A stretch of DNA of 24,206 bases from Escherichia coli (GTDB lineage Bacteria; Pseudomonadota; Gammaproteobacteria; Enterobacterales; Enterobacteriaceae), in the NCBI RefSeq assembly GCF_003334315.1, contig NZ_QOWR01000065.1; one strand, written 5' to 3'. Made by a program: the position numbers and the translations under genes. A model generated the notes under the pieces. That model had not been told where the DNA came from. It worked only from the letters and a program-made list of their open reading frames with translations, and ran no database searches. Shown piece by piece: positions 1 through 24,206 of the stretch (positions are counted from its first letter, which is position 1; each line of letters begins with the position of its first letter).

Positions 1-109
1 CTTTTCAAAAGGGTATTTTGGCTTTGACATATTAGGGGCTATTCCATTTCATCGTCCAACAAAATGGGTGCAGTACATACTCGTTGGAAATCAACACAGG
101 AGGCTGGGA

Positions 110-262
110 ATGCCGCAGAAATATAGATTACTTTCTTTAATAGTGATTTGTTTCACGCTTTTATTTTTCACCTGGATGATAAGAGATTCACTGTGTGAAT
201 TGCATATTAAACAGGAGAGTTATGAGCTGGCGGCGTTTTTAGCCTGCAAATTGAAAGAGTAA
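110..262 (+). CDS. hokA: Hok/Gef-family type I toxin, 50 aa small membrane peptide
   Basis: The 50-aa translation MPQKYRLLSLIVICFTLLFFTWMIRDSLCELHIKQESYELAAFLACKLKE is a typical Hok toxin. AGGAGG lies at 98-103, 6 nt before the ATG at 110. The ORF track extends this frame upstream to a GTG at 68. Adjacency to cspA matches the K-12 layout. Confidence 0.8.
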   Translation: MPQKYRLLSLIVICFTLLFFTWMIRDSLCELHIKQESYELAAFLACKLKE

Positions 263-270
263 GAGTCTTC

Positions 271-290
271 GGCGGGAAATTATTCCCGCC
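271..290 (+). terminator. Perfect hairpin after hokA stop (GGCGGGAA-ATTA-TTCCCGCC); possible terminator or fold-back element
   Basis: 8-bp perfect inverted repeat read directly from the sequence. The downstream tract is only weakly T-rich, so terminator function is uncertain. Confidence 0.35.
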
Positions 291-392
291 TTACTTACGG
301 CGTTGCGCATTCTCATTGCACCCAAATTTATTCTTCACAAAAATAATAATAGATTTTATTACGCGATCGATTATTTATTTCCTGAAAACAAA

Positions 393-419
393 TAAAAAAA
401 TCCCCGCCAAATGGCAGGG
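393..419 (-). terminator. Rho-independent terminator of cspA
   Basis: On the minus strand, CCCUGCCA-UU-UGGCGGGG forms an 8-bp stem with one G-U pair, followed by a run of seven U. It sits about 30 nt downstream of the cspA stop. Confidence 0.7.
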
Positions 420-448
420 ATCTTAGATTCTGTGCTTTTAAGCAGAGA

Positions 449-661
449 TTACAGGCTGGTTACGTTACCAGCTGCCGGGCCTTTAGCGCCGCTTTCGATG
501 GTGAAGGACACTTTCTGACCTTCGTCCAGAGATTTGTAACCATCGTTCTGGATAGCAGAGAAGTGTACGAACACATCTTTAGAGCCATCGTCAGGAGTGA
601 TGAAGCCGAAGCCTTTGTCAGCGTTGAACCATTTTACGATACCAGTCATTTTACCGGACAT
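449..661 (-). CDS. cspA: Major cold-shock protein CspA, 70 aa
   Basis: Translation [70 protein letters not shown] carries the cold-shock domain RNP motifs KGFGFI and VFVHF. Full-length ORF. Confidence 0.97.
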
Positions 662-803
662 AGTGTATTACCTTTAATAATTAAGTGTGCCTTTCGGCGA
701 TATGGCGTGCTTTACAGATTTTGAAGCGTTAAAGGAATGTGCACTACGAGGGGTATCAACGATAACTCTTGAAGGGACTTGCCTTACTACACTGCTTTAA
801 TGG

Positions 804-814
804 TCTGTACGTCA
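804..814 (-). promoter_or_regulatory. cspA 5'-UTR cold box (TGACGTACAGA on the coding strand)
   Basis: Exact 11-nt cold-box motif at the 5' end of a roughly 160-nt leader upstream of cspA. The cold box is an established feature of the cspA leader. Confidence 0.7.
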
Positions 815-828
815 AACCGTTGATGTGC

Positions 829-880
829 ATTAAGCCACGCATTGGCGGGTGATGCAACAATTATTTTTCATATTTATGAT
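829..880 (-). promoter_or_regulatory. cspA promoter: -35 TTGCAT, 17-bp spacer, -10 CTTAAT, AT-rich UP-like tract upstream
   Basis: Minus-strand reading gives TTGCAT (852-857), a 17-bp spacer, and CTTAAT (829-834). The tract 858-880 reads CATAAATATGAAAAATAATTG. The predicted start near 822 gives a leader of about 160 nt. Confidence 0.6.
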
Positions 881-941
881 TAATCGGTTGGAAAACGGTC
901 CTGTCATCAGGACCGTAAACAGCAATAAAGTGGATAAAAGT

Positions 942-1232
942 CTATTCCATCAACTGCTTACTTAATGCCGGGTTGGCTTGAATCAAACGCATCAATTTTA
1001 GTTCGGCACTTGAAGGCTTCACGCGTCTGGATTCCCATTCCTTTACCATGGCGACTGATACGCCCAAAACCCGGGCGAAATCATCGATTTTTAATCCTGT
1101 CCCTTTTCGTAACTGCTCAATTTCGGTACAGGACGTTGTTCTGTGCGTCAGGGTAATTTTCTGCGTTTCATCTTTAAAAACAATCTGTTCCAGGCTGCTC
1201 AACAGCTCATGCATTGGATCTTTATATTCCAT
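942..1232 (-). CDS. yiaG: XRE-family helix-turn-helix transcriptional regulator YiaG, 96 aa
   Basis: Full-length 96-aa ORF with an HTH region (LGVSVAMVKEWESRR). Position between cspA and yiaF matches K-12. Confidence 0.85.
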   Translation of the reverse strand: MEYKDPMHELLSSLEQIVFKDETQKITLTHRTTSCTEIEQLRKGTGLKIDDFARVLGVSVAMVKEWESRRVKPSSAELKLMRLIQANPALSKQLME

Positions 1233-1665
1233 TGAAAACTCCTCAAATCACACTGCGGGATCGTGAATTGCATCGAAGCTCATTAAGAATAGTCGGGAAA
1301 AGCAGACACAGCGGGGTGAAGTCAGGGCATGCTCTGGCTATGATTCGATTCAGCCTGTCATTTAGCGTGACTTATAGCCACCTAACGATCTGATAAATGC
1401 CGATATATCTCTTACCACTCCTGTTTTGTAAAGATTTCGAAAATCTAACCTTCTGCGAAGGCGTAAATCTCTGGCTACAAAAAAGGCAACGGCACTATCA
1501 TTTTTTAACAATGAAACAACAAATTAACCTTGTTTCATTTTCTCCATGATTTTACCAGGAAGATTACGTAGAAAGGGTATCCTGCAAGCCTGTCCTGGAC
1601 TATCCTTGTCACGTCAGACACGCGTGTGTCGTTGTGCGCTTTTTTTGGGTGAAAGGAGTAAGAAA

Positions 1666-2376
1666 ATGGCGACAGGAAAGTCCTGCTCTCGCTGGTTTGC
1701 GCCTCTTGCGGCGTTATTAATGGTAGTTAGCCTGAGTGGGTGTTTTGATAAAGAAGGCGATCAGCGTAAAGCGTTTATCGACTTCCTGCAGAATACAGTG
1801 ATGCGTAGCGGTGAACGTCTACCAACCCTGACTGCCGATCAGAAAAAACAGTTTGGTCCTTTTGTCTCTGATTACGCGATTCTGTATGGTTATTCTCAGC
1901 AGGTGAATCAGGCGATGGATTCCGGTCTGCGCCCGGTTGTAGACAGCGTTAACGCAATTCGCGTACCGCAGGATTACGTTACGCAAAGCGGTCCGCTGCG
2001 TGAAATGAATGGTTCGCTGGGTGTGCTGGCGCAACAACTGCAAAATGCGAAGTTGCAGGCCGATGCTGCGCACTCTGCGCTAAAACAGAGTGATGACCTG
2101 AAACCGGTCTTTGATCAGGCATTCACCAAAGTGGTAACGACGCCAGCTGATGCATTGCAACCGTTGATTCCGGCGGCACAAACTTTCACGCAACAACTGG
2201 TGATGGTTGGAGACTACATTGCCCAACAAGGTACTCAGGTGAGCTTTGTCGCAAATGGCATCCAGTTCCCGACTTCACAGCAGGCAAGTGAATATAACAA
2301 ACTGATTGCGCCATTACCGGCACAGCATCAGGCGTTTAATCAGGCCTGGACTACAGCAGTTACTGCAACCCAATAA
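1666..2376 (+). CDS. yiaF: Lipoprotein YiaF (DUF3053 family), 236 aa
   Basis: AAGGAG at 1653-1658 precedes the ATG at 1666. The N-terminus MATGKSCSRWFAPLAALLMVVSLSGC has a signal peptide and an LSGC lipobox. The ORF-track start at 1546 is an in-frame upstream extension without an RBS. Confidence 0.85.
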   Translation: MATGKSCSRWFAPLAALLMVVSLSGCFDKEGDQRKAFIDFLQNTVMRSGERLPTLTADQKKQFGPFVSDYAILYGYSQQVNQAMDSGLRPVVDSVNAIRVPQDYVTQSGPLREMNGSLGVLAQQLQNAKLQADAAHSALKQSDDLKPVFDQAFTKVVTTPADALQPLIPAAQTFTQQLVMVGDYIAQQGTQVSFVANGIQFPTSQQASEYNKLIAPLPAQHQAFNQAWTTAVTATQ

Positions 2377-12017: not shown

Positions 12018-12351
<334 letters not shown>

Positions 12352-12352
12352 C

Positions 12353-12438
12353 GTAGGCCTGATAAGACGCGTCAGCGTCGCATCAGGCAAATGTGCCGGC
12401 CATTGTCGGATGCGGCGCGACCGCCTTATTCGACCTAC
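12353..12438. repeat. REP elements (BIME-like pair of palindromic units)
   Basis: GTAGGCCTGATAAGACGCGTCAGCGTCGCATCAGGC, followed by a degenerate unit ending GCGGCGCGACCGCCTTATTCGACCTAC. Both resemble E. coli REP palindromes. Confidence 0.6.
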
Positions 12439-14648: not shown

Positions 14649-14820
14649 TGCCTGATGCGCTCCGCTTATCAGGCCTACGAAAATTCTGCAATGTATTGAA
14701 TTTGCACGATTTTGTAGGCCGGATAAGGCGTTAACGCCGCATCCGGCATAAACAAAGCGCACTTTGTCAACAATCTGTATACCCGGTGGCGCTGTGCCTC
14801 TGCGTGCAGCGCCATCCGGC
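14649..14820. repeat. BIME: cluster of about three REP palindromic units between dppA and dppB
   Basis: TGCCTGATGCGCTCCGCTTATCAGGCCTAC (about 14649-14687), GTAGGCCGGATAAGGCGTTAACGCCGCATCCGGCA (14714-14748), and CCGGTGGCGCTGTGCCTCTGCGTGCAGCGCCATCCGGC (14782-14820). Confidence 0.75.
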
Positions 14821-20506: not shown

Positions 20507-20574
20507 AGAGAAAACCCCCGCACGTTGCAGGTATGCACCTGACAACACCACGGGGGCTAATCTTGACTCTAGAC
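20507..20574 (-). ncRNA. rdlD: Rdl antisense RNA, antitoxin of the ldrD type I toxin-antitoxin pair
   Basis: The minus strand reads GTCTAGAGTCAAGATTAGCCCCCGTGG...GCGGGGGTTTTCTCT, a stem-loop ending in a U-tract, upstream of and antisense to the ldrD leader. Ends are approximate. Confidence 0.6.
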
Positions 20575-20622: not shown

Positions 20623-20730
20623 ATGACGTTCGCAGAGCTGGGCATGGCCTTCTGGCATGATTTAGCGGCTCCGGTCATTGCTGGCATTCTTGCCAGTATG
20701 ATCGTGAACTGGCTGAATAAGCGGAAGTAA
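20623..20730 (+). CDS. ldrD: Ldr-family type I toxin, 35-aa membrane peptide
   Basis: MTFAELGMAFWHDLAAPVIAGILASMIVNWLNKRK is a full-length Ldr peptide. It is the C-terminal part of the 91-aa ORF 20455-20730 in the track. Confidence 0.85.
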   Translation: MTFAELGMAFWHDLAAPVIAGILASMIVNWLNKRK

Positions 20731-20780
20731 CGTGTCATGCGGGCGTCAGGCTGCCGTAATGGCAATTTGCGCCCGGATCA

Positions 20781-20811
20781 GGCCGCAGAGGTTAAACTCT
20801 GCGGCCTTTTT
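20781..20811 (+). terminator. Rho-independent terminator after ldrD
   Basis: GGCCGCAGAG-GTTAAA-CTCTGCGGCC is a perfect 10-bp stem followed by TTTTT. It lies 6 bp from the bcsG stop on the opposite strand. Confidence 0.75.
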
Positions 20812-20816
20812 AGTGC

Positions 20817-22496
20817 TTACTGCGGGTAAGGCACCCAGTCGCCGCCGTTCAGGCGAACGTACGGTTTATCCTGGTATTGAATAACTACTGCATTTGAGTT
20901 CTCGGAGACCGGTGCTGTTTGTGGCAACCCACTGGTGAGTTTTTTCCAGTCAACATTGTCTTCGGTGAAAATCTTGCCATCAAGAACGCGAACCACCAGA
21001 TCGGAGATAGCCAGGAAGCTGCTCGGTTGGTCGATGACAATCGGTGCCCCCTGATGTGGTGCCTTCATGCCGAAGAATTTCACCCCAACGGGGACGTCTG
21101 TGATAGACGGGCTAGGGATATCACGTAGGCCAGATACCTGCATTCTGTCGCCCTTCAGCGCGCCGCCGTGTTCCGGCACCACGACCACCATCACTTTACG
21201 ACCCGATTTCTCCAGTTCAGTAAAGAAGGCGTCCAGTTCATCAAAGAATTTCTGCGCCCGCGCTTTGTAATCCGCTGTTTTGCTGACCCCCGGATAATGG
21301 TTGCCGTCATGCAGTGGAAGCGTGTTGTAGAACGTGGCACTACGGCTGTTTTTATCTTTTTCGGTAACGTCCAGCCAGCGGTTAAGCACGGCGGTATCGT
21401 CATAAACCGGCGAACCATCAAAGCCCAGCAAAATAACCGGCAGATTTGTTTGATCCATCAATTCAGTCTGCATGCCGCCATTTTCGCGAACTTCTTTCAA
21501 AAAACCGCCGAACTGGCCGTTATGTCCCATCATCAGGTGCTGGGTAAAGCCCAGTTTCGAAAGGTTATCAAACAGATAGCAGTCGTTATTTGCCGGTTGA
21601 TACAGATTAGTGTGCGAAGTCTGCCCGCAGCTGGCGCGCAGTAAACGGATCGCCGCCGGGCCACTGTAGGAGGTGGCGGAGTTAAAGTTCTTGAACTCAA
21701 TATCGAAATGCGACCACAGTGGATGCGACATCAACCCGGCGGCTTCTATATCCGACCAGGAAAGCGAACAGATGTTAATCACCAGTAGTTCAAATGGCTG
21801 AGCATCAGCGGGCAGCGAAGACGGGAAGGTCGATTTACGTTTCGCCTCCGCGTTATAGAAATTATTCAGCCAGGCGTTAAGGTTCGCCGTTGTTGGCGGT
21901 GCAGTTTGTGCGGGCATATCACCCACTACCGGTGCGCCACCCGTCGCCGCAACGGTTGCCGCTGCGTTACCACCCGTCGTTGTTACAGTGGTCGTCGGTT
22001 GTCCGGCTGGCCACAAGGAGAAACTTGGTCCCGCCAGGGTAAGTACGTTCAGCCATAGCAGTATGGCAACCACAAAAACAGTAATGCGAATCCATTGTGA
22101 CAGGAATAACCAGGCCACTAATAAAACAAAAATGGCCCCAATCATCTGCCAGTTAATAAAGCGTGTGACAAGGTCGATTAAATAATCGGTACTGAACCCC
22201 GCCACCTGCGAACCCTGGCTCATTATGCTTTCCGGGCCAGGCAACCAGGTGTCATGCCAGAACAAAGCAAAGCCGATCGGCAGGGCAATCCAGTGGCGCA
22301 AGCGATGCAGGCTGTAGCGCGGAATGGGCATCAGCAGAAACGCGGCAAACACCAAATTGAGGAGCGGATGGAAGTTAAGATATCCCGCCCACAACAGGCC
22401 GAACTTAACCAGAAAATAGAAGTTCCAGCCGGAAAGGCCGCGCCAGTATTGCCAGAGGGAAGAAGGCATGGCGGTATTTTGCGTAAATTGAGTCAT
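20817..22496 (-). CDS. bcsG: Cellulose phosphoethanolamine transferase BcsG, 559 aa
   Basis: N-terminal transmembrane region and a C-terminal alkaline-phosphatase-like domain. ATGA overlap with the bcsF stop. Confidence 0.9.
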
Positions 22497-23753: not shown

Positions 23754-24206
23754 GGTAATGACTCCAACTTATTGATAGTGTTTTATGTTCAGATAATGCC
23801 CGATGACTTTGTCATGCAGCTCCACCGATTTTGAGAACGACAGCGACTTCCGTCCCAGCCGTGCCAGGTGCTGCCTCAGATTCAGGTTATGCCGCTCAAT
23901 TCGCTGCGTATATCGCTTGCTGATTACGTGCAGCTTTCCCTTCAGGCGGGATTCATACAGCGGCCAGCCATCCGTCATCCATATCACCACGTCAAAGGGT
24001 GACAGCAGGCTCATAAGACGCCCCAGCGTCGCCATAGTGCGTTCACCGAATACGTGCGCAACAACCGTCTTCCGGAGCCTGTCATACGCGTAAAACAGCC
24101 AGCGCTGGCGCGATTTAGCCCCGACATAGCCCCACTGTTCGTCCATTTCCGCGCAGACGATGACGTCACTGCCCGGCTGTATGCGCGAGGTTACCGACTG
24201 CGGCCT
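23754..24206 (-). mobile_element. IS1 insertion sequence, partial (window ends inside the element)
   Basis: The terminal inverted repeat GGTAATGACTCCAACTTATTGATAGTGTTTTATGTTCAGATAATGCCCGATGAC starts exactly at 23754, and the adjacent ORF encodes IS1 InsB. About 453 of 768 bp are visible. Confidence 0.95.
23769..24206 (-). CDS. insB: IS1 transposase InsB (5' end beyond window)
   Basis: Translation [48 protein letters not shown]...[15 protein letters not shown] matches IS1 InsB. The frame stays open to the window edge. Confidence 0.9.

Follow-up and report, generated by a model that had tools for sequence, protein, structure and literature searches.

An intact hokA reading frame in a K-12-type Escherichia coli locus whose regulatory region is disrupted by IS150 and an adjoining deletion

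The window analysed here (the whole stretch of 24,206 nucleotides from E. coli contig NZ_QOWR01000065.1) opens on what we read, with a probability of about 0.93, as a K-12-type hokA/sokA type I toxin-antitoxin locus that is silent and, though its regulatory region has been destroyed, still has its toxin ORF and 3' RNA elements. The hokA promoter and the 5' tac element have been moved away, mokA has lost its start, and sokA, cut in two, is without its promoter; the locus would therefore be silent and the toxin ORF an orphan. The hokA/mokA'/IS150/sokA' arrangement of K-12 is itself already known, from literature going back to 1999, and it is annotated in the reference genome.

Methods

Window positions 1-700 were used as a query against 5,426 complete E. 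coli genomes, a set biased to laboratory and clinical lineages. Allele counts in the same 5,426 genomes were obtained with junction-specific queries of 80 nt (coverage of at least 80%) and are approximate. The loci aligned were those of a K-12 derivative (L001), of the IS-free strains EC67 (L002), O157:H7 F8092B (L003) and ECOR29 (L007), and of an R1-type plasmid (L010).

The positions of the sokA promoter and of the SokA 5' end were taken from the alignment with the R1-type locus, in which the same columns hold TTGCGC and TATCCT with 17 nt between them; these we take to be the sok promoter of R1. The IS-free hokA mRNA was folded from the EC67 sequence (L002, positions 1384-1748).

Results

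The toxin gene

The ORF list and direct reading give, at 110-262 on the plus strand, a 50-aa hokA ORF (MPQKYRLLSLIVICFTLLFFTWMIRDSLCELHIKQESYELAAFLACKLKE) with an intact coding sequence. Its product belongs to the Hok/Gef family of small hydrophobic toxins, since it matches Pfam HOK_GEF (PF01848, E = 1.6e-21, model positions 1-42 of 42) and the HokA equivalog NF007290 of NCBIfam (129.7 bits, cut-off 89). A Shine-Dalgarno (SD) sequence, AGGAGG, is read directly at 98-103 (plus strand), 6 nt 5' of the ATG; at this place EC67, O157:H7 and ECOR29 have AGGGGG. One protein accession, WP_001135732.1, is common to the window and to the IS-free strain EC67. The first-pass annotation, made from the letters alone, was thus right about a 50-aa Hok ORF with a strong SD at 110-262, and its description of hokA as intact holds for the coding sequence but not for the regulatory region, which has been destroyed by IS150 and a deletion.

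The translation initiation region (101-116, plus strand: from the final 3 nt of the SD through the spacer and the AUG to 4 nt beyond) has a predicted anti-SD partner at 231-246 on the same strand. The predicted helix between the two is 16 bp long and arises on folding the full-length IS-free mRNA as well as the truncated K-12 remnant. As the initiation region is paired in both folds, a read-through RNA is predicted to be untranslatable without mok-coupled ribosomes.

On the opposite strand, MG1655 annotation (b4793) and the ORF list place ysaE, the annotated gene of a 23-aa small protein, at 239-310 (minus strand), antisense to the last hokA codons and spanning the hairpin at 271-290 that is described below.

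The IS150 end and the upstream frame

Positions 1-77 are the terminal 77 bp of IS150, an IS3-family element (minus strand), namely the inverted-repeat end adjoining insJ, according to MG1655 identity and genome comparison. The terminal inverted repeat and the insJ start (ATG at 30-28, minus strand, within this end) are the same as in annotated IS150, and the repeat, in plus-strand reading, ends ...CGTCCAACAAAATGGGTGCAGTACA at position 77. Direct reading of the window start gives cttttcaaaagggtattttggctttgacat...cgtccaacaaaatgggtgcagtaca, directly followed by tactcgttggaaatcaacacaggaggctgggaATG. The query of positions 1-700 was matched in all 5,426 of the 5,426 genomes: wherever coverage was full, an IS150 transposase is annotated under the match; in IS-free E. 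coli genomes the match begins only at position 78; and plasmid-borne IS150 copies match exactly 1-77/78, at 100% identity. The full 1443-bp element, with the repeats TGTACTGCACCC and TGTACTGACCCC, was read in the K-12 derivative. It had been supposed that the upstream part of the locus was cut off by the edge of the window; the decisive IS150 end lies inside it.

This end also accounts for the in-frame upstream extension that had been noticed for hokA. The extension (68-109, plus strand) is a chimera of 10 nt of IS150 repeat that carry the GTG (68-77) and 32 nt of mokA remnant (78-109). As had been stated, the hokA frame is open upstream to GTG 68, which is the first start codon in that frame, and it remains stop-free back to window position 2; in K-12 DNA it is open for 42 codons 5' of the hokA ATG, to 17 nt past the window edge. 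The frame is open back into IS150 by chance: 14 stop-free codons upstream of hokA have a chance expectation of about 50% and are not unusual. No SD was found upstream of GTG 68 (CGTCCAACAAAATGG), and the regulatory value implied for the extension falls away, as it consists of an IS150 repeat fused to a truncated mokA.

Window positions 1-2009 are base-for-base identical to MG1655, the annotation of which places hokA (b4455) at 3720448-3720600 (window 110-262), the mokA pseudogene (b4647) at 3720448-3720632 (window 78-262), IS150 (insJK) at 3720633-3722075 (ending at window 77) and the sokA pseudogene (b4614) at 3722077-3722111 (beyond the window). The MG1655 locus has the same IS150 junction, the same mokA truncation and the same hokA CDS, with no difference within the locus.

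Loss of the mokA start and, by homology, of the sokA promoter

Downstream of IS150, a mokA pseudogene remnant of 185 nt occupies 78-262 (plus strand; MG1655 b4647) in the frame of hokA and with the same stop. It lacks the SD, the ATG and the first 9-10 codons; a complete mok leader ORF would carry an SD and a start codon of its own, and the window holds only this 3' part. In IS-free alleles, a 70-codon mokA ORF (MHRHHKVSLLLVGNQHRGLG-MPQK...) is in frame with hokA; its SD (GAGG) and ATG are kept in EC67 (L002, 1462-1475) and are absent from the window. Translation from the mokA ATG of EC67 (L002, 1473-1685) would yield HokA with an N-terminal extension, 70 aa in all.

Of the sokA promoter, a putative remnant, the -35-like TTGATT at 94-89 (minus strand), can be placed in the window by alignment to the R1-type locus. 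The -10 (TAACCT, minus strand, in IS-free alleles) and the SokA 5' end lie in the missing segment, as placed by R1 homology. The last 35 nt of sokA lie beyond IS150 and outside the window, and MG1655 annotation has sokA as a pseudogene. In the window, no promoter-bearing gene was found for an antisense Sok RNA that overlaps the mok initiation region.

Altogether 38-39 bp are missing by comparison with IS-free strains, and they held the mokA SD and ATG as well as the sokA -10 and the SokA 5' end (the last two by R1 homology). The IS-free allele reads ...ctataaatcaaagtGAGGcccctctATGcatagacaccataaggttagcctcttactcgttggaaatc... across the missing segment, with GAGGCCCCTCTATGCATAGACACCATAAGGTTAGCCTCT as the extra segment. 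The 3-bp target-site duplication is absent at the K-12-type IS150 (flanks ...caaagtt-IS150-tactcgttgg...), and this, together with the 38-39 missing bp, fits a deletion next to IS150.

The hokA promoter region and the mRNA 5' end (GGGTGCTTGAGA) were located at 1040-1067 of the K-12 derivative locus (L001), beyond the 1443-bp IS150 and thus about 1.44 kb away; GGGTGCTTGAGA is found at 1056 with TAGAAT upstream, and IS150 stands between both and hokA. No hok promoter and 5' tac contiguous with hok were found in the window. The Rfam family RF01794 (hok leader, from +1 to the hok AUG) scores 120 bits on the IS-free allele, 70 bits on K-12 and 67 bits on NCTC 86, and has no match in window positions 1-440 even at E <= 10. 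A scan of the window at Rfam gathering thresholds gave no hok/sok match, and with permissive settings Rfam matched nothing in 1-440 but the cspA 3' end, apart from matches at chance level.

The first-pass annotation had asked whether this copy keeps the mok/sok elements and had called for a check for an IS element or a deletion upstream. Both are present: the IS150 insertion and the deletion remove the hok promoter and the sok region, and the alignment to IS-free and R1-type loci indicates that the mokA start and the sokA -10 and 5' end are gone and that promoter and tac are displaced.

Could the locus still be expressed?

A transcript leaving IS150 might still run into hokA, with the 64-aa extended HokA from GTG 68 serving as a substitute for mok or as a longer toxin isoform. 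The frame that is open from inside IS150 through hokA, the TTGACA hexamer at 24-29 facing hokA and the strong hokA SD speak for such expression. A candidate outward promoter at the IS150 end (TTGACA at 24-29, a 17-nt spacer and TTTCAT) was rejected, as it fails the consensus scan of 1-700. That scan detected no promoter-like site in 1-700, the candidate -10 TTTCAT included; moreover, GTG 68 has no SD, and the hokA initiation region stays paired in the predicted fold. The arrangement is also stable in about 1,660 genomes although no SokA could neutralise such expression, and the K-12 locus is treated as non-functional in the literature (PMC6733600, PMC7232551). We regard continued expression as very improbable and retain the reading of a silent locus; read-through from IS150 or from glyS could give some hokA RNA.

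The surviving 3' RNA elements

Directly 3' of hokA, at 271-290 (plus strand), fold prediction and alignment to the R1-type locus identify a perfect 8-bp GC-rich hairpin with a 4-nt loop, of which the arms are GGCGGGAA (271-278) and TTCCCGCC (283-290) on either side of atta. It has a centroid energy of -15.1 kcal/mol, and of 200 shuffled sequences 1 folds equally well (z = -2.5). It aligns with the R1-type GGCGGGCgcagGCCCGCC, position and sequence being conserved, with a compensatory change from C:G to A:T. In R1, mutations that break the terminal stem abolish Tr-hok mRNA (PMC9841398). By analogy, the most likely reading of the hairpin is a stem-loop that protects the 3' terminus of a processed hokA mRNA, homologous to that of R1 Tr hok; the processing of the hokA RNA would likewise follow the R1 model.

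The fold-back inhibitory (fbi) box is a separate element, TCTCATTGCACCC, at 311-323 (plus strand), which is complementary to the mRNA 5' end GGGTGCTTGAGA (tac). The predicted fold of the IS-free mRNA is closed (MFE -137 kcal/mol, z = -8.0), with nt 1-6 (GGGUGC) predicted to pair with 358-363 (GCACCC) and nt 8-12 with 351-355. The two elements co-vary between loci (GGCGC/GCGCC in R1, GGGUGC/GCACCC in hokA), and a long-range tac/fbi stem has been described for R1 (PMC9841398). In K-12-type genomes, the tac partner of fbi lies beyond IS150.

The perfect 8-bp hairpin reported after the hokA stop was thus found at 271-290, but it is not the fold-back element that it had been called: it is a purely local helix without complementarity to the 5' end, it matches the R1 terminal stem-loop, and fbi lies at 311-323. 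That the hairpin is instead a plain intrinsic terminator of hokA, or fold-back element after all, is unlikely. It is GC-rich and adjoins the hokA stop, and in IS-free alleles, with the tail TTTCTTAC, the scan calls it terminator-like; with the tail found in the window, TTACTTAC, it is not called. Since fbi lies about 20 nt downstream of the hairpin and pairs with the mRNA 5' end, the full-length RNA must pass the hairpin, and in R1 the homologous hairpin ends the processed mRNA as its terminal stem and shields it from 3' exonucleases.

In ECOR29 (L007, 735-830), TTA replaces the TAA stop of hokA, which lengthens the ORF by 28 codons across the hairpin and fbi; PGAP has it as a pseudogene.

IS150 in the hokA leader across E. 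coli genomes

By approximate count, the K-12-type right junction is present in 1,663 genomes (~31% of the 5,426) and the left junction in 1,644, and the segment that is deleted in K-12 is present in 3,775. Two subsets of these 3,775 carry IS150 at another site: about 924 genomes have it in the opposite orientation at ...caAAG^TGAGG..., with a clean AAG duplication, and 95 have it in the K-12 orientation at the same AAG site, with no deletion. Roughly half of the 5,426 complete genomes, in a set biased as stated above, therefore have IS150 in the hokA leader, through at least three distinct events within 2 bp. The AAG target adjoins the mokA SD on its upstream side, and the K-12-type IS150, with its 38-39-bp deletion, lies 2 bp away. 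Copies in the leader were delimited at 598-2040 in locus L006, at 360-1802 in L011 and L012, and at 1135-2577 in L001 and L005. As to the leader itself, the most common class is the ECOR29-type allele, which occurs in about 2,495 genomes and over 80 nt is 92.5% identical to that of EC67.

NCTC 86 (L004, 1495-1510) carries no IS150 but a scar of 45-46 bp (caaagt/tggaaatc), which removes the mokA start together with the sokA promoter and 5' end and rejoins the hokA promoter and tac to hokA, with neither mok nor sok. The scar looks as if a K-12-type allele had imprecisely lost its IS150, together with 8 bp, via a GTT microhomology. The 80-nt query for this junction returned a figure of 172, which gives no usable count of the allele, since the two flanks of IS-free alleles are merged as one place.

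The absence of both the segment and IS150 from NCTC 86 is what one would expect if the 38-bp gap were allelic variation of the leader and not a deletion linked to IS150. The segment is present, however, in about 3,775 genomes of divergent alleles and in the R1-type homologue; the K-12-type junction has no duplication, whereas the other IS150 insertions, 2 bp away, keep the segment and a clean AAG duplication; and the NCTC 86 junction resembles a loss of IS150 from a K-12-type allele. Allelic variation of this kind is hardly credible, and a deletion next to IS150 remains our reading of the gap.

The rest of the window

Over its whole length the window shows 361 positional mismatches to MG1655, which are accounted for by about 30 SNPs together with an IS1 insertion at its far end. 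The SNPs are scattered in 2010-22325, with clusters at 2010-2412 and 20718-21466. The IS1 end (about 23755-24206, GGTAATGACTCCAACTTATTGATAG...) is inserted in bcsE and absent from MG1655, and holds a transposase fragment that matches the NCBIfam IS1 equivalent at 139.8 bits. The possibility that the window is MG1655 itself is ruled out by the roughly 30 SNPs and the IS1 in bcsE; it comes from a close K-12 relative. Bracketing of the window by IS150 and IS1 is what the breakage of a contig at repeats would produce.

A second type I toxin-antitoxin locus is formed by the ldrD toxin gene (20623-20730, plus strand) and the rdlD antitoxin RNA (20509-20574, minus strand, Rfam 87 bits). As had been remarked, and as Rfam and annotation confirm, the window holds both hokA and ldrD/rdlD; they are about 20 kb apart, and no functional link between them was found here.

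Next to hokA, the full cspA mRNA thermoregulator was detected at 394-821 (minus strand, 500.8 bits), and in 1-700 no terminator-like site was found other than that of cspA at 397-424, which faces hokA. In the dppA-eptB-yhjX intergenic regions (12018-12435 and 14671-14713), Rfam detected tRNA-Pro (proK), RtT repeat RNA, naRNA4 (a REP-derived nucleoid-associated RNA) and ES036.

Discussion

The R1 hok/sok (parB) system, the type I paradigm, has the same order of elements as IS-free hokA loci (tac, mok initiation region, sok promoter region, hok, terminal stem-loop and fbi), and both toxins belong to the Hok/Gef family. The two differ in that mok is out of frame with hok in the R1-type copy (ATGs 56 nt apart), whereas mokA shares the frame of hokA (60 nt apart). 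R1 is an intact system that brings about post-segregational killing; the copy in the window lacks all the upstream elements. With the IS-free loci, the window shares the SD region, the 3' hairpin, fbi and the neighbours glyS and cspA, as well as, in the case of EC67, the same HokA protein; unlike the window, these loci have a contiguous promoter, tac, mokA SD and ATG, and sokA promoter and 5' end.

In an intact locus (EC67, O157:H7, ECOR29), the promoter would yield an mRNA of about 365 nt starting at GGGUGCUUGAGA, of which the 5' tac would pair with the 3' fbi and so hold the RNA closed and inert. By analogy with R1 (PMC9841398), slow trimming of the 3' end to the GC hairpin would open the RNA, and translation of Hok would depend on that of mok, here the leader ORF mokA with its own GAGG SD and with an in-frame ATG 60 nt upstream of hokA. 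The SokA antisense RNA, made from a promoter inside the mokA-hokA leader, would pair with the mokA initiation region, leading to cleavage by RNase III. In the allele of the window, we infer that hokA would have no transcript of its own, that translation coupled to mok would be lacking and that SokA would not be made; in any read-through RNA, the hokA SD and AUG would still be buried in the predicted 16-bp helix.

In PMC6733600 and PMC7232551 (both citing Pedersen & Gerdes 1999), hokA, hokC and hokE of K-12 are described as inactivated by insertion elements near the toxin ORF. The hokC (gef) and hokE loci carry IS186. There an IS element lies near, but outside, the toxin ORF (PMC6733600), which is the same kind of event as at hokA with another IS and at other loci. 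HokA amplified from laboratory-strain DNA (MG1655 or LR27) has served as a toxic control and is toxic when over-expressed, and the IS-free chromosomal hokA of E. coli C is reported not to mediate post-segregational killing (bioRxiv 10.1101/2025.08.07.668861); an 'intact' locus is therefore not necessarily an 'active' one.

The bases just upstream of the mokA SD may tentatively be proposed as a sequence- or structure-specific hotspot of IS150 integration, although we hold this to be less likely than the contrary. If it were true, IS150 could recognise a feature of the hok/sok leader, or the loss of hokA/sokA regulation could have been selected repeatedly. Hok/sok loci have been reported to lie near insertion hotspots of mobile elements in E. 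coli and Klebsiella (bioRxiv 10.1101/527788); the general form of the proposal is already on record, and at most the detail at the level of the site might be new.

For the reading of such loci, this means that a toxin-antitoxin locus cannot be taken to work because its Hok ORF is intact and has a strong SD, and that 77 bases at the edge of a window can suffice to recognise the end of an IS. Beyond annotation, this copy carries little weight; the wider interest lies at the population level, in the presence of IS150 in about half of the complete genomes, a picture that agrees with the earlier reports of hok/sok loci as insertion hotspots.
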